NCBI RefSeq assembly: GCF_026151205.1
Contig: NC_087080.1
Location: 4,874,797 to 4,938,796 of the forward strand
DNA: 64,000 nt
Direction: 5' to 3'
From: Bolinopsis microptera
Lineage: Eukaryota
Of this stretch, positions 20,415 to 45,922 are shown piece by piece. Made by a program: the position numbers and the translations under genes. Within the stretch, counting starts at the first letter, position 1; every line of letters starts with the position of its first letter. The notes beneath the pieces are model-generated. The model saw only the letters and a program-made list of their open reading frames with translations, did no database searches and was not told the DNA's origin.

Positions 20415-20616
20415 GTCAGTTACGTGAATATTTAGAAACATTATTAAACCTACATTATATTGTAATTTTGGCCACAACTTCTGTTTACTTTATTCTAGTG
20501 AAAAGAGTCTAAAACAAGTTCTGCAAAATCTTTTTTGTCGTCGTACCAAAAGACTTTGTTAAAATATCATGAACCTTTACAAAGAAACCTGCTGAAACAT
20601 TCCTTAAACCATACAG

Positions 20617-20816
20617 GTATTCCAGTGTCTCCTTATCGAAGGAGAGAACTGCGGGGACATAGACCCGGTAAAGAAGATGCGGGACGCTACTGACCAGGTC
20701 GTGACAAGGGAACAGTTCCAACACTTCCTCAACACGCACAGAAATGTGAAGTGTCTTGTACCAGAGTCCAATGAAGCAATGCGAAACTCTTACCTCATAT
20801 TGGATGAGTACATGAG
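20617..20816 (+). CDS. RSAD2: Viperin exon 4
   Basis: [66 protein letters not shown], versus human [62 protein letters not shown]. Confidence 0.85.
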
Positions 20817-21021
20817 GTTTTTTATACACGTGTTATTTTCAAATTATTCTGTTTTTTAAACTTTCTTGTTAATGTATCCCTCATTTCCAAAATACTCGAG
20901 TAATATAATATATATATAATATAAACTGAAATAATACCTATTTAATTCATATTTAGCAAGTTCACAAATTTTCTTTTCTATTTTCGTTAACAGACTTTTA
21001 ATTTTTGTTAAACTATTTCAG

Positions 21022-21181
21022 ATTCTTAAACAACACAAAGGGTCGCAAAGATCCAACTAAATCTATCCTGGACATCGGAGTTGAGGGAGCTATGGAGGGA
21101 AGTGGGTACGATCACAAAGAATTCATTAAACGAGGTGGAAAGTACGAATGGTCCAAGAAAAGTTCAGAACTGGAGTGGTGA
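21022..21181 (+). CDS. RSAD2: Viperin exon 5 (C-terminus, stop TGA at 21179-21181)
   Basis: [53 protein letters not shown], versus human [53 protein letters not shown]. Total CDS 999 nt, all exon phases consistent. Confidence 0.85.
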
Positions 21182-23405: not shown

Positions 23406-23532
23406 TTCTGGTGTTATTAAGGTGATTATTATGTTATTATATTAGGATGACTTGACTTTGAAGAGCAGAAAATGGCCCATACCCCGTATTGCAATCAAAA
23501 GAAAGTTTGATTTAGTTTAAGAATCTCTGATA

Positions 23533-23658
23533 ATGCCCTTCAAAGACGTAGTTGTTCTCTTTGATTTTGACTGGACAATCAATTATAAAGAAAAGCTTCG
23601 TATCAAAAACCAAGTTCTGAACCATGGAGGATGTGTCTCATATTCTTTAACCAAGAAG
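23533..23658 (+). CDS. PARP4: PARP4 (vault PARP)-like gene, exon 1 (start codon; first half of the N-terminal BRCT domain). GC-AG intron follows
   Basis: MPFKDVVVLFDFDWTINYKEKLRIKNQVLNHGGCVSYSLTKK aligns with the human PARP4 N-terminus ..LKVKYLPQQQKKKLQTDIKENGGKFSFSLNPQ. Donor is aag|GCaagt, the canonical GC-donor consensus. Confidence 0.6.
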
Positions 23659-23826
23659 GCAAGTTTCACAGATATTTAGATCTATAATAAAACGATTATT
23701 TTAATTAAAAATTTATCGATGGTAAATAAATCAGTGGAGGCTTCTCACGATTATTGTTCACCAAATACATTACATTAAAGATTTAATTTATGTTTGTGAG
23801 TGCAGAACTTACACGAGCCTTCGTAG

Positions 23827-24016
23827 GTTAAATTCATCGTGTCCACCAACCCAACGCTCACCAAGGATACGTACCGTGGCAGGGCTGCCAAGAAACTTGG
23901 AATACCTATTGTAGATATTTATTACTTAAAAGAGTGCATCATTGCGAACTCTTTACTAGAATTGGATAAATCTTTGGTCTTGAGTGATACTGAAAAATTA
24001 CAGTCTGGAAGAATAG
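23827..24016 (+). CDS. PARP4: PARP4-like exon 2 (second half of BRCT domain)
   Basis: VKFIVSTNPTLTKDTYRGRAAKKLGIPIVDIYYLKECIIANSLLELDKS has the BRCT signature and aligns with human ..THIILDNADVL..VHIANPDFIWKSIREKRLLDVKNY. Acceptor tcgtag|, donor ag|gtaaag. Phases consistent with exon 1. Confidence 0.6.
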
Positions 24017-24165
24017 GTAAAGATTCATAATTTATTTTTCAGACAGTATTATTTTGGGCCGAAACGAATTTAGGGACAGTTTTTTGCTGATAAATGATAC
24101 GCATAACTCGGTAAGTTTAAATCTGTGGTTACAAATGAATCTTGTTAAAATATCTAAATGTTCAG

Positions 24166-26130: not shown

Positions 26131-26867
26131 TTTAATTTCCGAACTGCTGGATACGATCAATCTGGAAATCTGAATAGTTTCTCTCCGGAGTGAATATCCA
26201 TATGTCGTTTGAGGTGTGCTTTCCGAACTGCTGCGTACGAACAATCTGGACATTTAAATTGTTTCTCTCCGGAGTGAGTATTCATTATATGTGCTTGGAG
26301 GTGTGATTTCAGAGCTCCTGCATACGAACAATCTGAACATCTAAATGGTTTCTCTCCGGAGTGAGTCTTCATATGTATTCTGAGGTATTATTTCTGAGCT
26401 GTTGCATACGAACAATCTGAACATTTAAAAGGTTTTTCTCCGGAGTGAGTCTTCATATGTATTCTGAGGTGTGATTTCAGAGCTGCTGCATACGAACAAT
26501 CTGAACATTTAAAAGGTTTCTCTCCGGAGTGAGTCGTCATATGTACTCTGAGGTGTGATTTCAGAGCTCCTGCATACGAACAATCTGAACATTTAAAAGG
26601 TTTCTCTTTGGAGTGAGTCTTCATATGTACTCTGAGGTGTGATTTCAGAGCTGCTGCATACGAACAATCTGAACATTTAAATGGTTTTTCTCCGGAGTGA
26701 GTCTTCATATGTACTGTGATGTGTGATTTCCGAACTGCTGCATACGAACATTCTGAACATTTAAAAGGTTTCTCTCCAGAGTGAGTCTTCATATGTACTC
26801 TGAGGTGTGATTTCAGAGCTGCTGCATACGAACAATCTGAACATTTAAATGGTTTCTCTCCGGAGTG
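26131..26867 (-). pseudogene. Partial tandem duplicate of the C2H2 zinc-finger array (about 9 fingers, internal frameshift, no N-terminal domain)
   Basis: 84-bp DNA periodicity. 26185-26340 is nearly identical to 28305-28460. The two track ORFs (26157-26372, 26388-27107) are in different frames. Array begins at the same finger position (atttccgaactg) as gene A's 3' end. Confidence 0.55.
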
Positions 26868-27228
26868 TGTCAACAGATGATTTGATTGATTTGAAACTTT
26901 TACAAAATAGCAAGTATACAAATGTACAGCAATTCGAACAAACATATAAAATGGGCCGAAATGTATAAATGCTAAAAAGCGTGGGTCAGTGAAACAAGTA
27001 CAGAGGACAACTTTCAGAACAGGAGTTTTTTGGCCGCCCAAAGTCTCAATAACATCACCTCCACCTAGTAATAAAATTATGAAACGTGAAAAGTGTGAAA
27101 CAATCAAATAATAATGTATTTATATAATATAATTGTCTCTCAAATACAGATAACGTCCGTAAACTCTTAAAATACTCCTACAAGTACATATTATACTGAT
27201 CGGTGTCCGAGAAACATGAATTACGCCA

Positions 27229-28149
27229 TCATGGTGCCTTCTTAACCCGGCTACAGACCTTCCCGTTACGGATGTAGTGGTCGAGATGAGTCTGTTCAGC
27301 CTTCTTCTTCTTCAGGTCAGTTACCACGTTCTTCCTTGCTGCACGCTCTTCACTGGATCTATCAGGACAGATCCATACATCTTTGTGTGCATCAGCCATC
27401 CTCAGTCTCCCTGTTTTCATCAGAATCTGATGAACTGCTGTTGAGCTAGGGACGGTGATCTTGACTGGTCGGATAGCCGTGATACCTGGCCTCTTCCAGC
27501 CGACTCTAGTCGCTTCAAAATGAGGTCTCTCCCCGATCTCCTCCAATACTGCGGTTACCAGAGCTGGAAGCTGTTCTCCATCCTCTTCTTTCAGTCCAAA
27601 CACTATCAGATTCTTGCTCCTGTCCTCCTCTGCAGCCACACTCTTTATTACATTCTTCAGAATTTTACTGTTGCAGACCGCGCCATTTGTGCTGTTCTTT
27701 TGTACAGCGGCACTGTAGCTCTTAATCCCTGTCTCCACCGTTGTTTGTACTGTCTCTTCAACTGACGTCTTAAACAACTGTAGTTGTTCGTCCTTCTGCA
27801 CTAGCAACTGGTCCTGCAACCTGACCATCTTTTCCTTGTCTGCTAGTGCTTCCGTCTTGAGGCACTCAACGATTTCCATCATAGCGCTCATCTGACTACT
27901 CTGCCGTCGTACGAGGTCTGCTGCTTGCATAACCCATTCTGCCATATACCTTTTATAGATAGACGGAGACATGAGTATTTCTTGGTCCATATCTCCACGA
28001 ATTTCGAAGTTTTCTACTTTCAGTTCTCTTGCCATCGAAGTGAACCATCTATCAGCACATCCCTCTACATCTTCCTTTTCTTCATAGTTGAAATCCTTGA
28101 GTTTCTTCTGAGATCGGGTCAAATGTAAATCATCCTCCGTGGTGTACAT
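27229..28149 (-). CDS. L1-type ORF1p-like protein (coiled coil + RRM-like + CTD; Transposase_22-like), no RT downstream
   Basis: MYTTEDDL... coiled-coil region, then NLIVFGLKEEDGE...RPVKITVPSSTAVHQILMKTGRLR...DVWICPDRSSEERAARKNVVTDLKKK resembles the L1 ORF1p RRM/CTD (NLRIIGVPE...RHIIVKFS..ERIL...IRLSADFSAETLQARRE). Real Met at 28149; the upstream part of the track ORF reads through ZF DNA. Confidence 0.55.
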   Translation of the reverse strand: MYTTEDDLHLTRSQKKLKDFNYEEKEDVEGCADRWFTSMARELKVENFEIRGDMDQEILMSPSIYKRYMAEWVMQAADLVRRQSSQMSAMMEIVECLKTEALADKEKMVRLQDQLLVQKDEQLQLFKTSVEETVQTTVETGIKSYSAAVQKNSTNGAVCNSKILKNVIKSVAAEEDRSKNLIVFGLKEEDGEQLPALVTAVLEEIGERPHFEATRVGWKRPGITAIRPVKITVPSSTAVHQILMKTGRLRMADAHKDVWICPDRSSEERAARKNVVTDLKKKKAEQTHLDHYIRNGKVCSRVKKAP

Positions 28150-28222
28150 TGTATAGTAATGTACAAGTATACACACGCAAAGGCTTACTACGCGGTAGCA
28201 GCAAACTGAATTTATCGCAAAG

Positions 28223-29479
28223 TTACAAAAGATGATCTCGAAGACTTGATTTCCGAACTGCTGCATACGAACAATCTGAACATTTAAAAGGTTTCTCTTC
28301 GGAGTGAATATCCATATGTCTTTTGAGGTGTGCTTTCCGAACTGCTGCATACGAACAATCTGGACATTTAAATGGTTTCTCTCCGGAGTGAGTATTCATT
28401 ATATGTGCTTGGAGGTGTGATTTCAGAGCTCCTGCATACGAACAATCTGAACATTTAAAAGGTTTTTCTCCGGAGTGAGTCTTCATATGTATTCTGAGGT
28501 GTGATTTCAGAGCTGCTGCATACGAACAATCTGAACATTTAAAAGGTTTCTCTTCGGAGTGAGTCGTCATATGTACTCTGAGGTGTGAGTTCAGAGCTCC
28601 TGCATACGAACAATCTGAACATTTAAAAGGTTTCTCTTTTGAGTGAGTCTTCATATGTACTGTGATGTGTGATTTCCGAACTGATGCATACGAACAATAT
28701 AGACATGTGAATGGTTTTTCTCCGGAGTGAGTCTTCATATGTACTGTGATGTGTGATTTCCGAACTGCTGCATACGAACATTCTGAACATTTAAAAGGTT
28801 TCTCTTTGGAGTGAGTCTTCATATGTACTGTGATGTGTGATTTCCGAACTGATGCATACGAACAATATAGACATGTGAATGATTTTACCCCAGTTTGAGT
28901 TGTTAAGGGATATTGAAGAGTTGTTTTTCGTGCACTTACATTTGAAGTTGAACAATCAGGAAATTTTAACAGTTTTTCACTAGCAAGAATATTTTCTTGA
29001 GGATTGGGATTCTCCTGAGACATGGTAGAATTGTCCGATATATTACTGATCACTGAAGACCCTGATCCTTTGCTACTATTATCATTCTGAAATTCATCAC
29101 ATCTTGATCTTTTTTGTTTGCCAGAATTATTAACATGATCATTGATATGCTCAATAAAACTGTCCTCCTCTAGAAACTTTTCCCCACAAACTGAGCAGAG
29201 GAAGCCTCCAGCTTCTCCAGTAAATTCGCCCGGCTCCGTTTTAACTTCTGATTTAAGAACATCACATTTGTTTTGAACACAACAACCATCTTGTTCTGTA
29301 ACAGAACCGCTTTCATGAACAGAACCTCTAGTAGATTCACGTAGTAAACTGTTCTTCTCATCTTGTACTTGCAGGTCAGGCTTATAATGACGTTCCCTGA
29401 TATGTTCAAGGAAATACTTTTTGCTTCTCAAATCCTCTTCTTCTGTCTTCACTACTCTTTTTATGTGAGAACATGACAT
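28223..29479 (-). CDS. C2H2 zinc-finger protein (about 170-aa non-finger N-terminus, then about 9 tandem C-x2-C-x12-H-x3-H fingers with SGEKPF linkers); nested antisense in a PARP4-like intron
   Basis: 418-aa ORF. Fingers FKCSDCSYAAALKSHLRVHMKTHSGEKP repeated with 28-aa (84-bp) period. N-terminal region contains one finger-like CSVCGEKF...H..H. Confidence 0.7.
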   Translation of the reverse strand: MSCSHIKRVVKTEEEDLRSKKYFLEHIRERHYKPDLQVQDEKNSLLRESTRGSVHESGSVTEQDGCCVQNKCDVLKSEVKTEPGEFTGEAGGFLCSVCGEKFLEEDSFIEHINDHVNNSGKQKRSRCDEFQNDNSSKGSGSSVISNISDNSTMSQENPNPQENILASEKLLKFPDCSTSNVSARKTTLQYPLTTQTGVKSFTCLYCSYASVRKSHITVHMKTHSKEKPFKCSECSYAAVRKSHITVHMKTHSGEKPFTCLYCSYASVRKSHITVHMKTHSKEKPFKCSDCSYAGALNSHLRVHMTTHSEEKPFKCSDCSYAAALKSHLRIHMKTHSGEKPFKCSDCSYAGALKSHLQAHIMNTHSGEKPFKCPDCSYAAVRKAHLKRHMDIHSEEKPFKCSDCSYAAVRKSSLRDHLL

Positions 29480-30600: not shown

Positions 30601-31149
30601 AAGATCACCATATTCCACAGCTCTGACTCACAAGAAAGCCCTATCCTGCCCTCTGGAACACCCAATATCTGCCCAACTGTTTGCCAGTAACTCTAACGGA
30701 GGAAGTGGAAAGTGCAAGATGCTATATCATGTGACATCAGAAAGGAATGTGATCAGTATTCTATCAAGAGGCTTCTATTTACCCACCCTGGTTTGGAAAT
30801 AAGTTTTGTACATTTTTATCGAGAGTAAAAATGAATCACCTCCACACTATTAGCCAAGTCTATTATAAACCAATCGAACTTTACTTTGGATATAATATCA
30901 TGGGTAAATCAGTCGGGAAAATATCAGTTTTTAAGATTGGTAGAGTATAAGATTCTCTCATTCACATTGTGTAATGTGTATGTATGTAACATTCATGATA
31001 AGAGATAATCATCACCCGTTATGTAACACTTATGATAAGAGATAATGATGATCAGTATTACTTACCACAGATAGAGAGTGAGATGGGTGTAGAGAGAAGA
31101 GACTCTGGTAACCTTGGTAACGGGGTCTACTTCAGCTCTTCTTTGGAGT

Positions 31150-31405: not shown

Positions 31406-31554
31406 AGACTGTGCTAAATACCTAAACAAAGAAAACAACGCTATCTTTAAATGTAAAGTGTGCGTTGGAGAAGTATTTGAGACGACAGTATCTATGCGTG
31501 ATGTAATACGGGCCCCGCCAAGATATGATTCCATTCTTGGAGTGCCGAAATCTG
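31406..31554 (+). CDS. PARP4: PARP4-like exon, PARP catalytic domain C-terminal part
   Basis: ..CAKYLNKENNAIFKCKVCVGEVFETTVSMRDVIRAPPRYDSILGVPKS aligns with human PARP4 ..SIKYSHPGETDGTRLLLICDVALGKCMDLHEKDFSLTEAPPGYDSVHGVSQT. Acceptor cattcag(ag)|, donor g|gtagtt. Confidence 0.5.
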
Positions 31555-31762
31555 GTAGTTATTATTTCAACAAAGTTTAATGTTTTCAAAGTTAGATATC
31601 TGAGATATCTGCTTTGAGTGTTGAATAAGTAATGAGCGTACTACTATATTGCGAATTTGATGTGGTTAAACAATTTCTGCTGCTGCACAACGTACAAAAC
31701 TCCAATTATTTTCAGGACAGCACAAAAATGTGTAGTATTCTAATTTAACTTTAATATCGCAG

Positions 31763-31923
31763 GAAATCGGCCAACCTCCGCTTTCGACACGGCCGAATAT
31801 TGCATTTTTGACATGACTGCTATTGAGATTGTAGAACTGATAGCTTGTGATATTCCTCTAAACGAATTAAACAAGAACAAAGACTTTGCTGATGAGAATA
31901 ATGTACAATCCTTCCATAACCGG
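31763..31923 (+). CDS. PARP4: PARP4-like exon, end of PARP catalytic domain (contains the catalytic-Glu region AEYCIF)
   Basis: GNRPTSAFDTAEYCIFDMTAIEIVELIACDIPLNELNKNKDFADENNVQSFHNR versus human ..SVTTDFEDDEFVVYKTNQVKMKYIIKF. Splice phases join the 31406 exon and the 32303 exon in frame. Confidence 0.5.
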
Positions 31924-32302
31924 GTCAGTTTGTTACGTTAAGTATTTATTAATTTATTGTGTTTATTTTAATAAATTTTATACGTTTTTTAAAAATGTAG
32001 ATTAAAATACTCAGTACTCACTCACAGAGTCTGATTTTTCGTTATTCAAGTATTAGTGATATATCTTTAACACCAATACCATGATGGAACTACACTGAGC
32101 ATGCTAATTGATTTAGAGCATGGTAATCGATTTATTTTATATTTCATAAATAAAATATAAAATACAATACAATAACATCATAACATCCGTTTACATTGTA
32201 CAACGATACAACCTCAGATACTACATCCGGTATACAATCTAAACAATGTTGAATGTAACTATGTAAATAAAATATTTGCCCCATTTTATTCTACAATTCC
32301 AG

Positions 32303-35300
32303 GACGCCTCTGACTTCAACATTCAAGAAATCTTTGACGGCTCCTGCGTGTCCCGTCCTAAAGTTGGTCTCCTAGTTGGTGGAAAAGAAGCCTCACTCTC
32401 CGGTTCAATCCATGTTTACAGCGAGCTGACTGATCTAGCAGCACGTGTCACAATTGTACAATCCTACGAGAGTAACGAGAAGTCGGTGAAAGAAGCAAAG
32501 TACCTGTTTCCCATCACAGATAGCTCGGCAGTGTGCGGGTTTGAAGCTTATATTGGTAATAAACATGTGGTGGGAAAGGTTAAGAGAAAGGAGGAAGCAA
32601 GGAGGGAATATAGGAACGCGGTAAAGGCAGGTCATGGAGCGTATCTGATGGAACAAGAGAAACCTGACCTGTTCTCCGTCGCGCTGGGCAATGTGCCAGC
32701 TGGTCCGGTCACTATTCACATCAAGATATTGTACGTGACTGAGCTTGTTATAGAGGATACGGAGATAGTGTTCAGTGTACCCGCTCTGACTCAAGGAGGG
32801 ACTGATAACAAGTTAACTCAGGTCACCACGGATACCACGCTGGTCACGTGTCAGGCCACACCCATCAACTTTCATGCTTCTCTTGCCATGCCTTTTGATA
32901 TTGTCAAGGTTTACTCTCCAGGACGAACTGTGCAGGTGAAGAAAACAGACACCACCTGTTCGGTAAAATGGGAAGGAGTTCTATCTGAGGAGCTTTCTCT
33001 AAGAGTCTCCCTGGCTGAGATCCATCGGCCGAGGATGTGGGTGGAACAAAACGGGAGCAGCGAGGCTGCCATGCTCACATTCTACCCGGATATTCAGTTC
33101 TCTGAGGGTGTTAAGATGATTAGTTTGGTTATTGATTGTTCTCGTAGTTTAGAGGGGTCCTGGGTTGATGTGATCAAGTTAGCGCTGTGTTTCTTGGAGC
33201 GGTTACCAGAGGGGTGTGTCTTCAACGTTTACAAGGTTGGGGCGCTTTTTGTGGAGTTATTTCCCTATCATGCTGTCTCTACCCAGCAAAATAGGGATAT
33301 TGCCAAGGAATTTATTTCTGATCTAAAACCTACCGAGTCATCTGCCAATGTGTACAAGATTCTTAGTGCATACCTTGCCATGAAACCAAAGATCCCGGGA
33401 CAGTTTATGAACAGTTTTATACTAATCAGCGATGGCTTGGTGACAAACCCAAAACTCACCCTGGAAACAGCACGGCAGTTCAACTATTCAGATAGGATAT
33501 TAGCAGCAGCTATCACCACTGGAGGAAATAAACATTTCATGCAAAACCTCGGTCAAGTCTCTGGTGGTTCATTTGAATTGTTTGATGGTAATGCCAAACG
33601 AAAGTGGCCAACCAGCATTGCTAAATTCCTGAAAATCTGTACTGAACCGGGTCTAACAAAAGTTGACTTGAGATGGAAAGTATTTGGTATGAACAGAGAT
33701 GAAATAGAGCAAGCACCAGTGTCAATATCCTCGCTTTTCAACAAAACCAGACAGACAATGTACGGCTTCGTCCCTAACTGCCGTGCTGCAACACTGCTAG
33801 CTTACATTGGGGAACAGGAGCTGGAGACTCTGGTCAGTTGTGCCGATCTAAATGTTACCAAAGGAGACACACTGCACAAACTCACTGCAAATGCCTTGAT
33901 AGAGGATTACTTCAAGGGGAATCTCAGGGAGGATCAGATGGAACACGAGGCTCACTTTAGGAAGAGAAAAGAAGCAATAACTGAACTTTCTATTTCACAT
34001 TCCATACTGTGTCCACTTACCAGCTTCATTGCTGTTGAAGAGAGAGAAGAGGGTGAGGTGAGAGAGGAAACGATTGATATTGAGGAGATACTGGCGACTT
34101 TGAGACAAGATAAACTGGCTTATATGGCTTGGGAAGACCATTCTGATGTTGGGTATCATGAGGATGATATAACGATGATTGAGACACGCGCACGTAATAA
34201 GAAAGTTATTCCGGCACTGAGTAACATCGATAAATACGGATGGGCAAGTTCGGATGTTAAATTACTTCCTTACTTGGCATTTATTGCAGCAGAGGATGGA
34301 AAACATGAGCCTATGTCTTTTCTCCTGTCCGAAACTTTATCGGATATTGCCAGATCTGTGGCTGATACAAGAGGCATCTCTCCCAGCCACATTGTTTTCC
34401 CTGTTAAGGACCAATACAAAACCCTAGCTGAGCTGAATTACCGATCACTTTCAAATATAACTTATCGTGTAAAAGATATCCCTCTCACTGTCACTATAAG
34501 ATCAGACGCTACAGAAACACCTATTATCATCGCATCAAGAGGTTCTGCTACGATCAGAGAAATAAAAGAAAAAATAAATGAGCAACGTCTAGATAACAAA
34601 ATCCCTGTAGAATATCAGCGCCTTCGCTTAACAGGGAAAGACTTGGAAGATGACAGCACTCTAGATGATTACAAAGTGACAGAAGGTTGCACCTTGTCCA
34701 TGGAGAGTAAACTAGGACCATATCGTGGGAATCCAAGTAACGCTAACTTACAAGTCAGTACATTAACTGGTACTGGAACCAAATTCCTCGTAATTGTAAA
34801 CACTGGGTTTTCAGCCTTGCATCTAAAATCAAAAATTGAGTCCATAACTGGAACCCTCGCTTCAGATCAAAGATTAATCTTTGATGGAAGGCAGCTGGAT
34901 GATAACGTACCGTTATTTCACTACGGTATCAAGGAGGGAAGTGTTATATTCCAGGTTCCAACGTTGAGGGGAGGTGGTGGCCCTGTACCATCTAAACAGC
35001 CTGTACAAGCAGGTGGTGGTGCACTTTATGTCAAAACGTTAACCGGCAAAACTGTTACATTGGACTCAGAGAGCAGTATGACGGTAGAGGAATTGAAACA
35101 ATCCATCCAGGACAAAGAAGGGATACCCCCAGATCAACAGAGACTCATCTTTGCAGGAAAACAACTTGAGGATGGGAGGACTCTATCTGATTACAACATA
35201 TCAAAGGAGAGTACCCTGCACCTGGTGTTGAGACTGAGAGGCGGGCCCGGTCCGGAACAGAGTGTACAACAAAAGAGTGTGGGATCTGCAAAATCTCTGC

Positions 35301-36401
35301 TGGTTACTGGTGATATCAGTTCTGTCGAATCAAGTGCAGAGGAAGGAGAGGAGGAGGAGGAGGAGGAGGAGGAGAAGGAGGAGGAGGAGGAAGAGGAGGA
35401 GGAGGAGGAGGAGGAGGAGAAGGAGAAGGAGAGGGAGTCTGGGACAGAGGACTATGAGTCATATCGTGAAATGCTTTGCTATGGTACAGCCTCTGGTACG
35501 TCATTTTCTGGAATCTGTGCTGGATCTGTTGATGCATATGATAACTCATCTGAAACTTATAGTGTAGAGATGAAATTTGCTCGAGAATTGTTTGATAAAA
35601 CTCCTTCCGAAGAAGAAACAGGGTATTCACTGTTTGATGATAATACCAGTTCTTCATCTAATACAGGAACTCTGCCGTTAAAAATGTATTCATGTAGTGA
35701 ATTATCTAGTGATTCATCTAATGAATCATCTAATGAATCATCTAGTGAATCATCTAGTGAATCATCTAGTGAATCATCTAGTGAATCATCTAGTGAATCA
35801 TCTAGTGAATTAGCTTCGTTGATAGAACCTGCTAAACCCTCCTACAAACCTACTTGTTTTGATGTTAAACCTGTCAGTCTTGGTGCAGCTCCAGTGTACA
35901 GGACTGGAGGAGGAGGGGGAAGAGTGAGAGGAGGAGGAGGAGGAGGAGGGAGAGGAGGAGGAATGGGAGGAGTATCGAGTATTAAACGGTTAAGTTGTGA
36001 GATGGATGAAATCAGATGTGATTTAGTTTCGAGACCCGAATTTATGATTTCTGATCGTTTCGATGATGATGATGATGATGATGATGATGTCATGTTTAAT
36101 GATTTTTCGGAAATAAAAGCAAAGAAAAAGATGAAGAAAAAATCTCCTGAGCAGTGCTTTGATTTACTCCTCCTTGATGTCTCCCCACTTTCATTATCAA
36201 TTGAAGACAGCAGTCACGTGAGCATTCCTATAGTGCCCCGAAACTCCAGTATCCCCAACCGGAAATCACTAGACTGTATTACAACCCATGATTATCAAAC
36301 CAGCGTAAAAGTCGCTCTCTACGAAGGGGAACGGAGGAGAGTTAAGGATAATATGTATCTTGGAGAGATTGTGATATCTGACATTCCACCAGATCTGCAA
36401 G
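32303..36401 (+). CDS. PARP4: PARP4-like giant exon: VIT + vWA + 2 ubiquitin-like domains + near-canonical ubiquitin (LRLRGG) + poly-E / (SSE)n / Gly-Arg / poly-D tracts + start of HSP70 substrate-binding domain
   Basis: Continuous 1385-aa ORF. VIT: [53 protein letters not shown] (human PARP4 EAKYIFPLDDKAAVCGFEAFINGKHIVGEIKEKEEAQQEY..GHGAYLM); PRMWVEQNG. vWA: [13 protein letters not shown]. Ub: [77 protein letters not shown]70 part: [33 protein letters not shown]...[33 protein letters not shown]. Acceptor ttccag| at 32302, donor g|gtaggt at 36402. Confidence 0.85.
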
Positions 36402-36650
36402 GTAGGTTTTACCCCTGTTTATCTTTTACCTGATGAGCCATAAATCAAGCTACAAGACAGGGAATACGTTTTCGTAGAGTATCAGAAACTGATTAAGTCT
36501 AGACAATCCTATGTAATGGGTTCTTTAATATGCTTTTATATGAGCTCGTAATTTTTCCATCAACGGCTGTGCTAAAATTATTAACTTAATTAACTGAAAA
36601 TTACTATTACACATTAAGCTTCTTCATCATGATTTTTATTATTAGGGGTC

Positions 36651-36832
36651 GTTCACATATTACGTAATTTACGTACTTTTTGTACAATTTTTAACCCCCC
36701 CCCTCCCTCCCCCCTCCGTAATCAGTTTACACATAGCTACTGTGTAAAAATTACAATAATGTAATCATTTAGAAACTCCTCCTCGGTTGATTACGTAAAA
36801 TGTGAACGACCCCTTACTGAAAATGATTAGGA
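36651..36832. mobile_element. MITE (about 180 bp) with TIR GGGGTCGTTCACATATTACGTAAT, in the intron between the two HSP70-like exons
   Basis: ggggtcgttcacatattacgtaat ... attacgtaaaatgtgaacgacccc are inverted termini. Internal poly-C/G tracts. Homologous copies at 39826-39980 and 25548-25680; solo TIRs at 41385-41410 and 41553-41578. Confidence 0.6.
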
Positions 36833-36915
36833 GCAAATTCTGCAATTGAGATGACATTTACGCTTTTCTAATATTTTATACGTTTCAATTAAATTGTAAC
36901 TAAAATCAACGTTAG

Positions 36916-37118
36916 GGTCGGTCAAGATAAAAGTCACTGTGGAGATAGATGCAACTTCAATGATTCATCTTAAAGTGAAAATTGGCGATGAGGAGGAAAT
37001 GAGGTCTATGTACAATTCTGGACGGCTGAGTTCAGAACAGATAGAGAAGTCTATAAAAGACGCGAAGGATGATTTTCGTGATGGCAAACTAAACATTCCA
37101 GCTGAGATTTCCTTACCC
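36916..37118 (+). CDS. PARP4: Next exon of the same gene: remainder of HSP70 SBD-beta and start of lid
   Basis: GSVKIKVTVEIDATSMIHLKVKIGDEEEMRSMYNSGRLSSEQIEKSIKDAKDDF aligns with HSP70 [57 protein letters not shown]. Phase 1 from the big exon is completed by the acceptor gttag|gg. Donor cc|gtaagt. Confidence 0.7.
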
Positions 37119-38454
37119 GTAAGTGGCAATTTGTATATTTCGTATTCAGTTATACACATATAGTACAATTTGAGTTTAAAGTTAATGCAAATATCGTCAT
37201 CTTTCAGTGCTTTCCAACACGAGGCAGAACAATGCTATATATAGCATTGTATCATCAGTAATACATTGCTAAACACCAAGCGGATGTGTTTTGGTTTATG
37301 GGACATTTGACTCAGTCGCTATTTAGATATTGTGTGTTTGTAACGCGCATAGATTGGAAGATATGTAGCATGGTACCTACAGCAGCGACAAATCATGCCA
37401 GCGATTATATTATAAATCAAAAGGCTTGCATATAATGAACATATTGACACGGGTGCAGAGTTGAGTCTGTACGGAACCTAGTAGTTTCAGATCCTTGTTT
37501 AACTTGCCGTACATCAAGGTCATCCACTACTTTAGCCCGGCGAGGCACATAACTCCCTCTACAACTCCATGACAAATGTTTCATATATACTAGCCGAGTT
37601 CACAAGATATATCCTTGTGTTTGAGAAGAGCTCGTTAGAACTGCTTCCTTTCCCTTTATATTATTTAAATTATATTGAAATATATTTAAATTATATTGAG
37701 AACGCGCGTGCCGACGTAATTAAATTTCTTGTGCGTGCATTCAGTACGTTTGTGTACATTATTCATATCAGTGTGTTTCGTCCAAAGTTAACTGGCCATA
37801 TTGCTAAGTTATAATCAGTCATACTTGGTTCAGGATTGTAACACAACTTTTAATTTCAGGCTCCGGATATCAATACTTTCCAGAACACTGCGTAAGTTAA
37901 AAGCTACTGCACAATGTACTTGTAGTAGAGTCTGTATTGATTATCTGATATGTTTTCTCCTGTGTTCTGTTATGTAAATGAGTAATAGGTTTTTTCTAGG
38001 TTTTCATTTGTTGTTACTCATTGAACCTATCTTTAATTCATAGCTTTAAAAATATCTAATTTCAGTGACAAAAAAAGGATCGCCCCTACTTTAGAGAATT
38101 TGATATCTTGTTATCGCAACGTAAGAATACAAAGGATGTTCCACAACTAAAACAACCTTGAGGAAAATGATAATATTATCAACTTGAACTTCACCTAGAT
38201 AGTTAAAATTATCAGTTTCTTTCCCATAGATAAGATGATTTAGAAAATTACTAAGATTGTGTAAAAGAGATACATTTTGTTTTAATTTGGTGGGGATTCT
38301 GGTGGGAATGTGTCAGGTGAAACATAGTAAGAGTGATTCTGGCGTTTGATTGGTCAATAGTGGAAGCAGATTAGTTTATTGCAGCCACTTTTTTAAATAT
38401 GCTTGACCTCCTAGGTCAACTAGAATGCACATAATGATGATAATTATGATATCA

Positions 38455-38775
38455 GATATACCTTATATATACTAGCAGGAACCCGTATAACCCTAAAATG
38501 GTGTCAAGACTCAAGAGGCTAAAATAATTATTACCTATTTAATTCGCGTTTTTGACACCACTTGGGGGTCCAAATTTTGGGCTCTAAAACTCCTATTCTT
38601 GGCAAATTTTTTTTTCATGCTGATTTGTAGGCCATTAAAGCATTTGACCCAGGCAAAAAAGTTTCAGTTTTATATCTTTTACGGTTTTTGCGGAAAGTCG
38701 CGTTAAAGGTGATGCCGTGGTGTCAGTAAAATGGCACGGAACCATATATATCGTCTCGCTTTATATATAGTAAGA
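38455..38775. repeat. About 320-bp interspersed repeat (SINE/MITE-like), copy 1
   Basis: atatactagcaggaacccgtataaccctaaaatggtgtcaagactcaagag...gatgccgtggtgtcagtaaaatggcac...tcgtctcgctttatatatagtaagat recurs at 59166-59450 plus 61976-62010. Confidence 0.7.
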
Positions 38776-39540
38776 TTTGATCACTGAAACTTGCACTTAC
38801 AGGGTTACGAAAGACTAGTTGCTGTTTCATCTTTCTCATGGTAAGCACTGTAAATTGTAAACGCCAATTTGCTGTTATTTTGGCCCACTAAGACAAAAGA
38901 TATTATTATCTTTTTCATATTGAGGTGAGCTCGTACCTGTTATGTGGGGTCCCAATTCCCTCATATACTGCGTTTTAAAAAAACCTTACTTACCACCAAC
39001 TATCAGTGACAGCTTTTGTGATTTAAATTTAACGTTTCAGTACTGAAGTTGATTTGAACGTTACGATGTACGAAAGCTGGGTCTCCTCTTTACGTCAGTT
39101 TCCTCAAACAATTGACCACATAATGGAATACAGATATAAGGTACCGTAAGTATTGAGAGCTTCCTCCCTATATTACATATGACATCAGGGATCATCTTTA
39201 AGGTCAACAAATACACCTCACATCCCAACCAGAATCTACGTCTATTAGCACAATAAACTCTTAGGTTTGCGTCGAAAATTCGAACGGTGAACCATCTATC
39301 CCCGATGTCATGAAGATAGTACAGAAGTTGCTGGTCACTGGTGGAATAAGAAGTCTTGGAACTGATCTGCAGACTAAAACCGCCTCCCATCTCATGGATT
39401 TGTTAACCTTGATAAGATCCATGGAAAGGACCAAGGTGAATTTTTGTTTTGTTTGGTTCTTAATTTATAGCTTTGACTTTAATTTGGGGATGATTGTTTT
39501 TCGAATGAGTATTCAGTATAAAATTAAAAATGTAAATACA

Positions 39541-39720
39541 GTATAACCCCGATTTACCGCGCCCCGATTTACCGCAAACCCCGATATTCCGCAGCCACCT
39601 CCCCCACCTAACTGTAACATGTATAATGTAAAGAAACAAAACCCCGATTTACCGCGAATGTTTCCTTTCCCCAACCTCCGCGGTAATTGAAATTCGGGGT
39701 TTTACTGCATAATACTGATT
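39541..39720. mobile_element. Palindromic MITE/SINE-like element with termini CAGTATAACCCCGATTTACCGCG
   Basis: cagtataaccccgatttaccgcg...cgcggtaattgaaattcggggttttactg. Related termini at 29940-29980, 53390-53425 and 25085-25120 (ccccgatttaccgtggagtttggg). Confidence 0.5.
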
Positions 39721-39825
39721 GTATTACAATTATTAATAAATAGTCCTGATTTTTCAGCGAAGGAATTGACATTGTAACAGTTAACATTGCACCCTCACAG
39801 AAATTTTATTCTCTCGAACGTCCCA

Positions 39826-39980
39826 AAAGTCGTTCACATATTACGTAATCAGCTGAGGGGGGGGGTTTCCGAATGATTACGCTAGTGCAATTTTGACACA
39901 ATAGCTATGTGTAAAACTGATTACGGACAGGGGGGGGGGAATGTTCTAAAAAAATGATTACGTAATATGTGAACGACCCC
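39826..39980. mobile_element. MITE, second complete copy of the ACGTAAT-TIR family
   Basis: gtcgttcacatattacgtaatcag...gattacgtaatatgtgaacgacccc. Confidence 0.6.
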
Positions 39981-41329
39981 AAAGTTCCCTATCCCCCCAC
40001 ATTTACAAAAATATTAATGGACAACATTTCAGCGTACTGAAAATCTAATGAAGTCACTATTCGAACCTAGTGATATTCTTAGAAGACTCGAGATTTCAAA
40101 TACTGTAGCGTCACTCTTTCTCACACTTTCTGCAGTGTTTGGAATTGCAACAAATGATAACACTATCAATCACGAGGTTTGTTCATTGATTACATTTTTA
40201 CTTAAGCATGTTATCAGTGTTGTTGATTGCCAAGTTTTGTGTTGAGGATTGATGAAAATACAAATTGATTAACAAACAAAACTTTATTTATTTGTTATTT
40301 ATTATTATTTATTTATTTATTAACGTGCAAAACTTGATGTAATTAGTTCATTTTTCAGATTCTGAGGAACCTCGGTGATCTCCACCTAGCGACCGAGTTA
40401 AAGATATTTTCGGAATCTCATCACGTCACCCCTCCACCTTCTGTCTGTGTTGTTTCCGATTTAGATTGATTTTTCTTGAGTATTCGGTTATTGGTATGTG
40501 TACTGAGAACATAATTTTTTAGCGGTTGCAAAATTATATTTTTTACAATTATTGTTTTTATTTACATAGCAATTGTGATTTGTATGTATATGTATTATGT
40601 TAAGTTTAATAGAGCGTGTTTGATTAATAGCGATGTTAGATTTAATTGATAAAACTCAGCCGAAGCAATGCTGCAGTTGCTTAAAATTAAATACTTTCGC
40701 TCGATATTGGTTAATTTTAAGCTAAAGATTAAAAGTCTAAATTATTATCTGAACAGTTACGTTCACACATTTGGACTTGTGTTACATACAATAAGTATAA
40801 CTTTTAGACTCTAGTGTCCAGACTAAATAAGATTTTTATCGACCTAAAATGGTTTGGGAATATTTTGAACATTTTATATATAACATGTTAATGTTATGTA
40901 TGATATTTTCTTGTCACTTAAGCTTTGACTTCGAAGTTCGACGCATCAAATACTTTATTATCTTAAATTGTATTTCAATTCTAAAACGACTCTTGATAGA
41001 TAAATTGCTCACCATACCGTACAATTGTACTACTTCAGATAAATCTTTGGAAACATGATAACATGACTGAGAAAAACATTTAAACCATGTACTATTATAA
41101 ACCTGAGTACTATTATATTCATTCGGTCCCTATTTCTCTAAAAAATGACCCAGCTGCACGGAGGGCGAAAGTTGTGGGTATCCGGCCTGGTTTATAAATG
41201 TGAACCTTGAGTACGAATATCTTGACTTCCTTTTTAAGTTAGAAACTCTACAGGAAATATGATCATAGTTTGTTACATTGTGATATTGTGGTAATTAATG
41301 AGGGCTCTGTGCTCTGACCATCAGAGATT

Positions 41330-41590
41330 CCACAGTGTTACAGTGGTTTTCACGTGGAGATATTTGCTGCGGTAATTCCACTCAGAGGACGTTCGCATAT
41401 TACGTAATCAGCTTTTTTCATTTATTTTCGTAGATCATACTTTAGAGCTCTGTGTTCTGACCACCAGGTGCTCTGACCACCGGAGATCACACTCTCTCTG
41501 ACGGAGAGAATTGTCAGAACGCTATTTTCGGCGGTAACTCCATCAGTTGTTGTTCACATATTACGTAATCAATTTTTTGCATTTTATATA
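41330..41590. repeat. Two tandem copies of an about 130-bp unit, each ending in a solo MITE TIR (gttcacatattacgtaatca)
   Basis: gagggctctgtgctctgaccatcag...cgcatattacgtaatcagc followed by gagctctgtgttctgaccacc...cacatattacgtaatcaat. Confidence 0.6.
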
Positions 41591-43796
41591 TATCTAAGGT
41601 CCTTACACAATCAAATGCATATCATTAACTTCAAGTGCCCTACCAACAAGTTGGTCAAGAAGCTTCAGCTTGAACTAATCCTCTGATCACCATCAGAACG
41701 GACCCGGTAATATTTAGGAACTTAGAGAATCTGATCAGTTCAGCTCGGGCCCCTGTTCCTCTAATGATTTGAAATTGAACAAATGTGGAGCCTCACCGAA
41801 CTTATTTAAGACGCTCATTTGGCCCTAACTTAATCTTGAAACTAATTTATTGCGGTAGTCCTCGAAATACGATTACGAAGCTTTCAACTTGTTTTGTAAT
41901 GTGGACAGAAGGTCCGTAAATCCGATTTCACGAATGGGAACTTTATTCTCGGAAGGACTAGATACTATTTGGTCAGAAGGGTACCCGGAACTTTTATCCA
42001 TTGCTATTTGTACTTTTTAATTTTGATTCGTGATATTGATCAGAACTCAGATGATGAAAGTATATTTTATTGGAGGACTTCGACGCGCCGCGCAAACTAG
42101 CATTCTTGCTTCTTGCAGAGCAACGATCTGGAAAGGTTGACATCGTTAATCAATATATTTTACTGCACTCTTTATTCGATAATCATCTGTTTGAGCTTCA
42201 TTAGTCCAACACTCCTGAAGCACTGGTCAAAAATATTTGTGTTTCATCGACTTCGTCTGAATTTAAATGAAGCAGACTGTGTAAAAACTAAAACTTGATC
42301 AAGTTCACAATCACAAGTTCTTGATATAATTACTTTTATATTACTCTATAGCATTTTGTTGAAAATGTTGTCATGACCAAACTTTTTCCTTTCGTTACAC
42401 ATTTCCACTCAATCTAATTTGGAGACATGAGAGATTTTTTTGTGATTCAGTCTAGAAATTTCCGTTTGAGAAATGGACAAGATCATTTTAAAATAAACTA
42501 AACATAATTCGGTTGGGTTTCTACTTTTAGTGGTTTCGGGGAGAGTCTGAGCAGCAAACTCGGTCAGAAAATAATTCACAGAGTCAGCCAGTTTTTAATT
42601 AAACTTTTAGAGTAAAATAATAGCTAACGCGTGGTTAAATCTTGGCCAGAGAAAAGTATGAATGGGTAGGCCACAGCATTAAGGGCTTTAAGGCATTTAC
42701 ACCAGTGAAATTGGAGGACGGACCGAAACAGTGGGGCAGCACGGGAATAGGGTGGCGTTTAAATTAATGACGGGAGGTCAGGTAATATCATTAGTAAGTT
42801 AAGAATAGAATTTTAGTTCAGATTCATAATCATAAATCATTACCATTTGTTATCCATAACCCCATTAATGATATGTCCATTAAGTCGACAATTCATGCAG
42901 AAACCACTAATAATAATATCTAGAATTTCTAGAACCATTGGAAACCGCAGTGAATTCAAAATGTGCCTTTTACCATTTTTGTCCATGTCATCAATAAGTT
43001 CATTTTATTTTTAATAGACCCATTGGCGGTACCACATTGAAGCCACCTGGACCAGTGTTACAGCCTCTGAAAGCAGATCGAATCATTGCCGCTAACATTT
43101 GTCAAAGCTCCCGGCCTTTGAAATGACGTTCTTGATTATGGTAATAGAACTTCTGCGTTAATCGAGTTGGGATTGTGATCGAAAATATTTCAATAAAAAC
43201 TCATTAAATCGAGGCAGTTCCCGTCCTCTTGACAAAAAAAGCACTTGGTGAACTGTTTGCATAGAATCCGAGTAGGGTATTGCTAAAGATTGGAAACGTA
43301 TACTGTAAAGTTGCAGACACAGTTAGACTTGGTACACTTGAAACTGGCATCTCTGATGTGTAATGACCTCCTATAATATGATAATCTGAAATAGTTAATG
43401 ATGATCCGGTAATAATTGAAATGGTTAGCGGAGCTATCAGCTAATGCATTAGCTGATTCTATTGACTGGAACCAATCGTGTTGTACACTGATTTTAAATA
43501 ATTTTGTCTTCTGAGGTGATTTACTAATTTTGTCTGCAATTATGTGTATTATCAGTAAACACTAATTAAAGCTCCTTCAAGCTATAATTATCAGTAACAT
43601 TTATTTTTATTGCACCGTTCCACACTCCCGGATAGTCACAATTTCCGTTTTACATTATTTTCCTCCACCGTACCCGACCGTTCTGATTAACTTTCTTTTC
43701 TTTTTGTCTTCCAATAGTTCGTTTCCACTAGTTTCGCAATTTTGGTATTAGTTACTATTCTTAATAAATTACGGTTGTCTAAGGTAAGTTATAGAA

Positions 43797-44460
43797 CTCC
43801 TGACCAAACGAGTGCCGAAGGCACGAGTTTTTTCGGAAGTTCTATAAATTGCTTATGGTACGGCACAAGACGACATGCAGTCTTGGGAACATTTTCCGTC
43901 CAAAATTTTGAAATTTAGTGCATTTTAACCGTGTCAAATTGGCAAAAAACTGTACCTACTTCCGACACAAAGTGTTCATTGTCCAATGAGCATCCTGCCA
44001 TGCTCAATGCTGCTACCATTGTGCTACTCTCGTGGTTGCGGCCACATGACAGCATACCAAACTCCTATTGGACAGCGCATTTCTGTCACGTGACGATTTG
44101 GTTGTTGATACTTATAGCTTTATAGAGTACTGTATTTCAGAAATAGCATTTTTGGAATACTGTATGTTATAAAATGTTAAATTTATGTTAAATTCCTTTA
44201 TGAAATTGTAATCCCTTTGCGATCTACTCTTCTAATTTCCAACGATAACATTGATATTTCAAGCTTGACTCAACCCTTGCTGTTCTCTCAAACTATAAGG
44301 ATGTGAATTGTGAATCTAATCTTGCTTGAGCATGAAACCCAGCCCTTCTCGCTGGTTAATGTAGGTCACGTTATCTATCAAGTGACTGTACCTCGTGACT
44401 GCGTCACTCGGTTACCACGTGCCCGACAAACTGGTGCCGTACCATAAGTTCCGGAGTTTT
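43797..44460. mobile_element. Candidate non-autonomous TIR element (about 660 bp)
   Basis: ggaagttctataaattgcttatggtacggcac at about 43840 versus gtgccgtaccataagttccggagtttt at about 44431 (inverted). Contains only a 64-aa ORF. Confidence 0.3.
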
Positions 44461-44719
44461 GCGTTTGATTAAGAACAGACAAGCCAGTCTTGACCTTTAG
44501 CGAGCCTATTTTTACCATTTGTGTCATCAAAATGTGTTATTCTCCATCGGTGAAGGGGTTTACTCGATTGATACCTTTTAACCTATCTTGATCTAGTTTT
44601 ACAAAATTTGAATCCTCTTCAGCGAAAAATGAAGTCGTCTTGTACCCTTTGTCCTTAGATTTGACACTGGACATTGAACCAAAACGAATGCTCAATTTAA
44701 CTTCAGTTTGACAGGGCAG

Positions 44720-44886
44720 ATGGGTTTTCTGAAAAAGCTGAAGGAGTCCACAGCAAACAAGAGAGCTTTACTTGTCATTACCGTACTTATATTGGTGCTG
44801 GTGATAGTAGTTATTTCAGTTGTGGTTACCACTGTTGGTAAAACTAAAAGTGAACCATCCTATGGAACACCTTGGGAAAATCCCAG
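44720..44886 (+). CDS. Aminopeptidase N-like (M1 family) exon 1: cytoplasmic tail + signal-anchor TM
   Basis: MGFLKKLKESTANKRALLVITVLILVLVIVVISVVVTTVGKTKSEPSYGTPWENPR. Type II membrane topology as in APN. Donor cccag|gttatt. Confidence 0.7.
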
Positions 44887-45212
44887 GTTATTGTGACCAC
44901 ATGTTATTTAATTTTATTATTGTTGATTTATCAATTTACAAATATAGTGGCCACTCGAGCACAGATCAACTCCAATCATATTCCGAAAGGTCCCTTACCT
45001 TCATTTGGCACAATTTTGAACGAAATTTATTTCGGAGGTCCGGACTTTTTTATATTGATTTAGGTTGTAGAACATTGAATATGAAAGCCAATAAAATATT
45101 GAAAATCAGATATATACAACTGAGGACAAACCATTAACTGCAAACTAAATTGAGTATTGTTTTAAACTTCTTTCTCCAAGTCTACTAAGTAATATCACTG
45201 CAAACCTCACAG

Positions 45213-45303
45213 GTTACGGACGGACGTGAAACCTAAGCATTACAACATTACGCTCCAAATAGACGTGACACATGAGACTTTCTCGGGGAAAGAAACTATC
45301 GAG
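45213..45303 (+). CDS. Aminopeptidase N-like exon 2
   Basis: (R)LRTDVKPKHYNITLQIDVTHETFSGKETIE versus human APN [37 protein letters not shown]. Phases consistent. Confidence 0.7.
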
Positions 45304-45463
45304 GTAGAAATTGTTTTAGATTAAAAGAGCTTATCCATTCACTTTGATGCAGAATTCAAATGAATGAATGAAATTGATCCTTTCTCCCAAAGAAAGAAAG
45401 AATGTCCAGATATTTGGATTGAAGAGGAGTATTAGAGCTGACAGCTTGTAACCGCTACCTCAG

Positions 45464-45651
45464 ATAGACATCACAGCAGCCAACATCTCTACGATAGTAC
45501 TGCACGCCAATAAGATATTGATTCCTCTAGACTCCTCCTACCTGAGATTGTACTACAAGACTGTAGGTTCAGAAGATGAAAAGGAACATGATATAAAGAT
45601 TAAGCGTCATCATCCTTTTACAGAGAACAGCTATTACATCATTTATCTGGA
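45464..45651 (+). CDS. Aminopeptidase N-like exon 3
   Basis: IDITAANISTIVLHANKILIPLDSSYLRLYYKTVGSEDEKEHDIKIKRHHPFTENSYYIIYL(E). Donor ga|gtaaga chosen to keep phase with exon 4. Confidence 0.6.
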
Positions 45652-45777
45652 GTAAGAAAATTTAGAACAAGAGATCATTTTATTTTGATATTTGAAATAT
45701 CAAGCTGCGAACCTAAAAGTTTATCAACATGATTACAAGTACAATGCTACATATATAACGAGGTGTTATTACTTCAG

Positions 45778-45922
45778 GGAGTATCTAAAGCCGGAGGAAG
45801 GAAACAGTTATTTCCTAGACATAGATTGGAGTGGAGAGTTGAAGTACAAATTATCAGGACTTTATCTTAGCAACTATATTGAGAAGGATGTTGTTAGAAA
45901 AACTGTGTCCTCGCAGTTCCAG
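45778..45922 (+). CDS. Aminopeptidase N-like exon 4
   Basis: EYLKPEEGNSYFLDIDWSGELKYKLSGLYLSNYIEKDVVRKTVSSQFQ versus human ..GFYRSEYMEGNVRKVVATTQMQ. Donor cag|gtaaat is the seed of the downstream minisatellite. Confidence 0.7.

Follow-up and report, generated by a model that had tools for sequence, protein, structure and literature searches.

The 64,000-nucleotide stretch of Bolinopsis microptera DNA analysed here (contig NC_087080.1, positions 4,874,797 to 4,938,796 of the forward strand; hereafter the window) carries a PARP4-like gene whose predicted product contains a near-canonical ubiquitin domain in mid-protein. An intact open reading frame (ORF) of 1385 codons (32276-36433, forward strand) holds this domain in frame, and its giant coding exon encodes the VIT and vWA domains, the end of the ITIH-like region (to about position 34140), a series of ubiquitin-like domains (UBLs), the ubiquitin domain, a linker and the start of an Hsp70 substrate-binding domain (SBD; Table 1). 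Upstream lie two BRCT exons, which are also conserved with the homologous locus L001, and four collinear exons of a probable PARP catalytic domain, which are strongly conserved with the homologous loci L001 and L003 and align to PARP4 with the H-Y-E triad in place (His in LYHVTS, Tyr in GVYFSSS and Glu in AEYCIFD), the individual E values against mollusc PARP4s being weak (0.001-1). Since every one of the closest named relatives of the VIT-vWA part is a PARP4 protein (33-40% identity) and BRCT and PARP exons accompany it, we assign the gene to the PARP4 (vault PARP, clade 5) type. The order of its predicted product is BRCT, PARP, VIT, vWA, UBL0, UBL1, UBL2, ubiquitin, Pro-x-Pro, linker, Hsp70 SBD and the segments encoded by further short exons, which probably form the 3′ part of the gene. 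Of the hallmarks of PARP4, a BRCT domain and a VIT-vWA part C-terminal to the catalytic domain are thus present, but a vertebrate-type MVP-interacting domain was not found, PARP4 C-termini giving no match in 36403-45200 other than an oyster Hsp70-like segment.

The ubiquitin domain is a 76-residue unit read in the frame whose codons start at 35000+3k, and its Gly76 is followed directly by Pro-Gly-Pro (codons CCC GGT CCG, 35246-35254, forward strand) and then by Glu-Gln, in agreement with the original prediction of an internal near-canonical ubiquitin ending in LRLRGG before Pro-Gly-Pro; of the coordinates given there (35010-35245), the end is exact but the start lies 8 nt too early and out of frame. 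Residues 3-76 matched PDB ubiquitin in phmmer with E = 2e-36, and Pfam PF00240 scored 190.7 bits on the ORF (cut-off 25.4) over three stretches, the best of which covers amino acids 917-988, placing the domain by score, above the curated threshold, in that family. Residue-by-residue comparison also bore out the claim that a single change, Q62S, separates residues 30-76 from canonical ubiquitin (98% identity) while the N-terminal part is diverged, with 12 of the 27 positions from residue 3 to residue 29 differing; the asymmetry is pronounced (Fisher p = 8e-6), and over the whole domain 61 of 76 residues are identical (80%). The L8/I44/H68/V70 patch, R42, R72 and R74 are kept, as are six of the seven lysines (K6, K11, K27, K33, K48 and K63). 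Ubiquitin proper is an invariant 76-residue protein with seven lysines, and we describe the domain in the window as ubiquitin-derived rather than as ubiquitin because K29 is Ser and so large a share of its N-terminal positions differs. Of the tandem UBLs this last unit alone stayed canonical: UBL1 and UBL2 have drifted to about 35% identity to ubiquitin, and UBL2, the unit directly preceding, ends, as had been reported, in ...PTLRGG, followed by GGP.

Table 1 Coordinates of the PARP4-like gene and its encoded domains in the window.
Feature	Position	Strand	Remarks
Two BRCT exons	23527-24018 (23533-23667, 23836-24015)	+	tblastn of PARP4 N-termini, E ~1e-7 to 1e-9
PARP catalytic exon, LYHVTS	30641-30793	+	
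PARP catalytic exon, GVYFSSS	31068-31142	+	
PARP catalytic exon	31407-31556	+	
PARP catalytic exon, AEYCIFD	31771-31872	+	
Giant coding exon, ~4.1 kb	32303-36401	+	predicted acceptor cag/G at 32302/32303, predicted donor G/gtaggt at 36401/36402
VIT	32405-32734; ORF residues 44-153	+	Pfam E = 1.9e-29
vWA	33119-33574; ORF residues 282-433	+	Pfam VWA_3 E = 2.6e-8
UBL0, strongly degenerate	34265-34474	+	from alignment only, with first UBL of P0004
UBL1, diverged	34484-34717	+	26/74 identical to ubiquitin; specific to the lineage of the window
UBL2, diverged	34748-34975	+	27/76 identical to ubiquitin; missing from P0001, P0002 and P0004
Near-canonical ubiquitin domain	35018-35245	+	76 aa, C-terminal end LRLRGG
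Low-complexity acidic/Ser/Gly-rich linker	35255-36160	+	
Linker, poly-Glu	35339-35431	+	(GAG/GAA)n coding microsatellite
Linker, P-stalk-tail-like motif	35606-35641	+	
Linker, Ser-Ser-Glu / Ser-Ser-Ser-Glu repeats	35705-35809	+	12-bp (TCATCTAGTGAA)n coding microsatellite
Linker, Gly/Arg-rich stretch	35906-35971	+	
Linker, poly-Asp	36062-36088	+	
Hsp70 SBD, first part	36161-36401; ORF residues 1293-1376	+	opens with interdomain-linker motif DLLLLDV
Next exon, Hsp70 SBD continued	36916-37118	+	GSVKIKVTVEIDATS...GRLSSEQIEK...
Further short exons	38061-38123, 39036-39116, 39307-39414, 40027-40137	+	conserved with L001 and L003

Three independent assemblies (loci L001, L003 and L002, encoding P0001, P0002 and P0004, respectively) carry the same ubiquitin at the same place, again followed by Pro-x-Pro (PDP, PDP and PTP). 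The contigs of P0002 and P0354, both close PARP4-like homologues, also encode M1 peptidases with 80% identity to the Mnemiopsis protein, which identifies these loci as ctenophore DNA, and the lineage of the window is well separated from the Mnemiopsis group. Between the window and the ctenophore-type loci, the proportion of synonymous differences (pS) is 0.75-0.88, that is, saturated, in the ubiquitin domain and its flanks alike, and nonsynonymous divergence (dN) is 0.07-0.09 for ubiquitin residues 30-76, 0.11-0.28 for residues 1-29 and 0.11-0.37 for the VIT-vWA part. Residues 30-76 are, in the deepest comparisons, better conserved than any other 47-residue segment of the exon (top 0.3%), and 41 of their 47 positions are invariant across the four sequences. 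Because synonymous sites are saturated while these residues stay the most conserved, the pattern is one of long purifying selection on the protein and not of recent insertion. The idea of a captured ubiquitin unit therefore holds in that a ubiquitin-derived unit is embedded in mid-protein, but a recent capture is not supported, given the saturated synonymous sites and the position shared by the homologues; an assembly artefact, against which the original prediction had cautioned, is excluded by the intact ORF and by the recurrence of the domain at the same position in three independently assembled loci. The G+C content at third codon positions (GC3) of codons 30-76 is 0.51, against an exon mean of 0.40 +/- 0.13, and, at the 83rd percentile within the exon, is no outlier and is uninformative as to a foreign origin. 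No native ubiquitin gene was found in the window or in loci L001-L004.

The wider distribution of the domain was surveyed by an exhaustive profile-free search with the VIT-vWA part, in which retrieved proteins were scanned for a ubiquitin domain and their names and Pfam matches checked; an additional search, which used the VIT-vWA region of Littorina, yielded for the most part short or partial models, P0279 being the one addition. The combination BRCT-PARP-VIT-vWA-ubiquitin occurs in Euglena gracilis, Diplonema japonicum, D. ambulator, the unionid mussel Sinanodonta woodiana, gastropods (Biomphalaria, Littorina, Nucella, Aplysia, Elysia, Bulinus and Plakobranchus) and several further eukaryotic contigs, the ubiquitin domain lying after the end of the ITIH-like region in all carriers; it was not detected in the other retrieved PARP4-like proteins, among them vertebrate, echinoderm, amphioxus, cnidarian and most bivalve models. 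Automated database annotation flags PF00240 on some of the carriers. Of 20 family members, 11 have Pro directly after LRLRGG (three of ctenophore type, together with Littorina, Nucella, Sinanodonta, Euglena, D. japonicum and three further eukaryotic sequences); they span three distant groups, and Pro is kept in every ctenophore-type sequence. Elsewhere Gly-Gly is followed by Gly (4/20, heterobranch gastropods), Leu (1/20, Biomphalaria) or Arg (1/20, one further sequence) or is lost (3/20, D. ambulator and two further sequences). Differences from ubiquitin over residues 30-76 number 1-4 of 47 in the ctenophore sequences versus 9-28 of 47 in other lineages, and the N-terminal part is diverged alike in all lineages (12-20 of 27). 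These sequences are most economically explained by a single old origin within the PARP4 family, followed by many losses, Pro at the position after Gly76 (P1′) being ancestral; repeated captures at the same spot are possible but less parsimonious. The case for common origin rests mainly on the same architectural position and the common LRLRGG-Pro junction. The N-terminal pattern T[VI]x[DE]LK, which all the PARP4 ubiquitin domains have in common, is also a generic UBL consensus (as in ISG15 and Rad23), and we have downgraded it as proof of a single origin. A universal loss of K29, as an escape from K29 chains of the ubiquitin-fusion-degradation (UFD) type, was rejected as a general rule, K29 being kept in D. 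ambulator and one further sequence; in Euglena the position is Arg.

In the linker downstream of the ubiquitin domain, both coding microsatellites align poorly with P0001 and P0002. The linker also contains a motif similar to the tail at the C-terminus of ribosomal P-stalk proteins (..DDDMGFGLFD). PARP4s of fish, oyster and gastropods carry clearer copies of it (MGFGLFD, IGFGLFD and MGMGLFD) in the tail that follows VIT-vWA; comparable copies (MGLFD and IGMGLFS) occur in Euglena PARP4, which also has a Pfam Ribosomal_60s match. This motif is present in 12 of 361 PARP4-like proteins versus none of 120 controls and no shuffled sequence, and we found no description in the literature of PARP4 together with GFGLFD. 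The Hsp70-derived segment that follows is, to judge by its Pfam HSP70 match, which is confined to profile positions 380-463 of 599 and includes no nucleotide-binding domain, an orphan SBD and not an Hsp70. Similar segments occur in an oyster PARP4 (P0047) and in two PARP4-like proteins, P0455, which also has a ubiquitin domain, and P0460. Another tail was seen in P0006, a PARP4-like protein of Littorina saxatilis, where residues ~1330-1350, after the ubiquitin domain, read RGRTNQTARMSTGGKAPARMQ and are strikingly like the N-terminal tail of histone H3 (ARTKQTARKSTGGKAPRKQ) with Lys4 and Lys9 replaced; this could be a gene-model artefact or a mimic of the H3 tail.

These observations are best explained if the ubiquitin domain is an old, integral part of a PARP4-family architecture that would comprise BRCT, PARP, VIT, vWA, ubiquitin, a disordered acidic tail and a variable C-terminal module, here the Hsp70 SBD. 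As to its role, we favour, with somewhat better than even confidence, the interpretation that the domain is a ubiquitin tag which is encoded in the gene itself, is not removed and is read by the ordinary ubiquitin machinery. The half that faces receptors, E2/E3 enzymes and deubiquitinases (L8/I44/H68/V70, R42, K48, K63 and LRLRGG) is held the same as in free ubiquitin and Gly76 is in a peptide bond to a conserved proline, a constraint not seen in the neighbouring UBLs; ubiquitin receptors could thus dock on PARP4, among them proteasome or p97 adaptors, autophagy receptors and proteins with UIM or UBA domains. K48, K63 or K11 of the built-in unit might serve as sites for chain building, and host deubiquitinases would be able to trim such chains but not to take off the proximal unit. 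More speculatively, client binding by the Hsp70 SBD and ADP-ribosylation by the PARP domain could in this manner be coupled to ubiquitin-reading machinery. In general, deubiquitinases cut linear ubiquitin fusions whichever residue stands at P1′, with the exception of Pro, at which they work very slowly; Bachmair, Varshavsky, Johnson and colleagues are reported to have found Ub-Pro poorly cleaved. Ub-Pro-beta-gal and UbG76V fusions retain their ubiquitin, which is then recognised and extended, and are the classic UFD substrates (PMC3791797; PMC6423620). That the unit in the window is a permanent internal domain, as originally suggested, is plausible, and the LRLRGG-Pro junction kept among homologues lends it comparative support.

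Several points weigh against such a tag. We infer cleavage behaviour, receptor binding and chain extension at the built-in ubiquitin, together with all else that is said here of its function, from sequence. The Pro after Gly76 could partly reflect a Pro-rich linker, because Pro is also found at +3. Strict retention of Gly-Gly could point to processing, since integral UBL domains normally lose the Gly-Gly tail; heterobranch PARP4s have Gly after Gly-Gly, and the models of Bulinus and Plakobranchus stop 3-4 residues later, short forms that resemble a processed ubiquitin-like precursor. In model substrates, ubiquitin that cannot be removed acts as a degron, an awkward property for a stable enzyme. 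Lastly, a single-sequence AlphaFold2 model of the region from UBL0 to ubiquitin was poor (pLDDT 50) and says nothing about domain packing.

An alternative interpretation is that the protein is a cleavable precursor, cut after Gly76 by a possibly dedicated deubiquitinase to give a BRCT-PARP-VIT-vWA-UBL-ubiquitin fragment with a free LRLRGG, which could be activated and conjugated as a giant ubiquitin-like modifier, and a Pro-initiated fragment with the acidic tail and the Hsp70 SBD. We consider this unlikely: LRLRGG persists almost throughout the family, including members whose domain is down to about 35% identity, heterobranch gastropods have Gly-Gly-Gly at the junction, and the Bulinus and Plakobranchus models end soon after it in the manner of modifier precursors, but those short models may be truncated (one is marked partial), and Pro occupies P1′ in every ctenophore-type sequence and in more than half of the family members, making a junction of the kind that is classically poorly cleaved (UFD reporters; PMC3791797). 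Gene conversion, with a native ubiquitin gene as the donor for codons 30-76, either in the ctenophore stem or repeatedly, would account, in place of functional constraint on the domain, for the near-identity to ubiquitin, for the sharp boundary at residue 29/30 and for the far closer match of residues 30-76 in ctenophores than in other lineages, given that the N-terminal part is equally diverged everywhere, and Ser57 in the window versus Ala57 in P0001, P0002 and P0004 could be a converted site. However, saturation at the synonymous sites of residues 30-76 equals that of the flanks while dN stays low, so purifying selection has acted since any conversion, which must then predate the split of the lineages; lineage-specific replacements persist (Q62S; K33R/G53F/T55M; Q49C), GC3 is unremarkable, and a ubiquitin gene that could have served as donor is found neither in the window nor in the fetched loci. 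On these grounds we give conversion a still smaller chance than a precursor.

Two further explanations seem to us very unlikely. The ubiquitin-LRLRGG junction could be a decoy or tripwire that mimics the substrate of deubiquitinase-like proteases of pathogens, whose cleavage or binding would alter the activity or localisation of PARP4. Circumstantially, the neighbouring gene conserved upstream is of the antiviral viperin-like type, and the positively selected part of primate PARP4, a linker after the ITIH-like region for which cleavage or modification by viruses has been proposed (PMC10450202), is at the equivalent position; yet strong long-term conservation of the junction is unusual for an arms-race interface, and Pro at P1′ would probably hinder viral LXGG proteases as well. 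Equally doubtful is an inert structural spacer, in which the beta-grasp fold serves only to link and does not engage the ubiquitin system: the tandem degenerate UBLs that precede the domain suggest that beta-grasp units are tolerated as simple modules, but those neighbours drifted whereas the last unit kept its receptor-facing residues, six lysines and LRLRGG, none of which a spacer would have to preserve.

Integral UBLs of BAG1, BAG6, ubiquilins and Rad23 bridge chaperones or clients to the proteasome and have about 20-35% identity to ubiquitin and no LRLRGG. They resemble the arrangement in the window in having a non-conjugated ubiquitin fold in cis as a docking handle together with a chaperone-related or client-binding module, but the window domain is 80% identical overall with an intact tail, and its partner is the Hsp70 SBD itself rather than a BAG domain. 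In cytopathic pestiviruses (bovine viral diarrhoea virus), a recent insertion of host ubiquitin in the polyprotein is cleaved by host deubiquitinases to release NS3; there too a ubiquitin unit was captured in mid-polypeptide, but that unit is recent and cleaved, whereas the one described here is ancient and its junction residue argues against cleavage. UFD reporters (Ub-Pro-beta-gal and UbG76V-GFP) share with the window a linear fusion and the Gly76 junction type, uncleaved by deubiquitinases in the reporters, in which the ubiquitin is read; they differ in being artificial, with an N-terminal ubiquitin and rapid degradation via K29/K48 chains, whereas the window has a natural fusion kept by selection, an internal ubiquitin, Ser at position 29 and K48 present. 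The built-in ubiquitin thus falls outside the definition of a UFD substrate (N-terminal ubiquitin with K29/K48 acceptors) and matches it in the Gly76-Pro junction; by analogy, it may work like a UFD signal. In algal ubiquitin fusions, ubiquitin units are internal or C-terminal in larger ORFs and are easily missed by annotation (Sibbald et al. 2019; PMC6332867), but the partners are NiSOD, actin, IMPs and ribosomal proteins, and a term search of that paper gave neither a PARP4 fusion nor a conserved Gly-Gly-Pro junction.

Within the PARP literature, the 2010 survey of PARP evolution by Citarelli et al. gives clade 5 PARPs as BRCT-PARP-VIT-vWA, with no ubiquitin domain (PMC2964712), and the re-annotation of human PARP4 by Suskiewicz et al. 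(2023) gives BRCT-WGR-HD-ART, an ITIH-like region, a disordered linker and the MVP-interacting domain (PMC10450202), likewise without a ubiquitin domain. The protein in the window is like human PARP4 in the order of BRCT, PARP catalytic, VIT and vWA domains and in a long disordered linker that leads from the ITIH-like block to a C-terminal module, but the human protein ends in the MVP-interacting helical domain, whereas here three UBLs, ubiquitin, an acidic tail and the Hsp70 SBD are found. A full-text literature search for PARP4 with a ubiquitin domain, ctenophore, mollusc or Euglena found no description of a PARP4-ubiquitin fusion. The fusion is old and conserved and apparently undescribed, and joins known kinds (ubiquitin-domain proteins, ubiquitin fusions and PARP4) rather than forming a new category.

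Both PARP4 and the vault particle have long been puzzling, and the interplay of ADP-ribosylation with ubiquitination is under active study. Near-canonical ubiquitin that is naturally fused, through an apparently uncleavable junction, in PARP4 of ctenophores, molluscs and euglenozoans serves as a Rosetta-stone clue, with the adjoining Hsp70 SBD and P-stalk-like motif pointing to machinery that reads ubiquitin, to chaperones and perhaps to translation factors. The fusion also provides a natural setting in which to see the effect of a permanent in-line ubiquitin on a protein, and shows that vertebrate-centred annotation misses part of the PARP4-family architecture. A bolder extension, which we advance tentatively and think rather unlikely, is that the ancestral eukaryotic vault PARP was a cis-ubiquitinated ADP-ribosyltransferase that combined a non-removable LRLRGG-Pro ubiquitin, placed behind the ITIH-like region, with a P-stalk-like acidic tail and, in some lineages, an Hsp70 SBD, giving a composite ADP-ribose-plus-ubiquitin signal or a giant ubiquitin-like modifier, and that this module was lost in vertebrates. 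If true, such an ancestor would connect vaults and PARP4 with proteostasis or with the control of translation, and the vertebrate loss would help explain why the function of PARP4 has stayed obscure.

The gene has a conserved neighbourhood. Directly upstream is a five-exon viperin/RSAD2-like radical-SAM gene (19229-21181, forward strand; ..NYHLTRKCNYECKFCFH..), whose counterpart in L001 has 85-87% protein identity, and downstream is an M1 aminopeptidase gene (45211-49466, forward strand) with a large 3′ exon (47076-49466) that is 64% identical to a Mnemiopsis leidyi protein and at most 36% identical to any other named protein; the order viperin-like, PARP4-like, M1 peptidase is common to the window and L001. 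The peptidase match marks the window as ctenophore DNA and rules against a gastropod PARP4 paralogue, a reading suggested by the fact that the named hits with a ubiquitin domain were gastropods. Three reverse-strand ORFs (26388-29479), two of which are arrays of C2H2 zinc fingers, are nested in the PARP4-like gene, in an intron between its exons at 25846 and 30170, and the intron after the giant exon contains a 171-bp element (36644-36814) like a miniature inverted-repeat transposable element, with 25-nt terminal inverted repeats that are 96% complementary. Upstream of these genes are a LINE-like retroelement (14140-18365, forward strand), with a PHD-like finger and a CCHC knuckle in ORF1 and an endonuclease and reverse transcriptase in ORF2, and a separate reverse-transcriptase fragment (9932-11431, forward strand). 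Near the start of the window, a (TCC)n-rich array, degenerate and strongly strand-skewed, extends over about 2.2 kb (773-2954) and is followed by a 20-bp repeat and a 405-bp satellite with at least four copies that are 99% identical (3016-3180, 4284-6000+).

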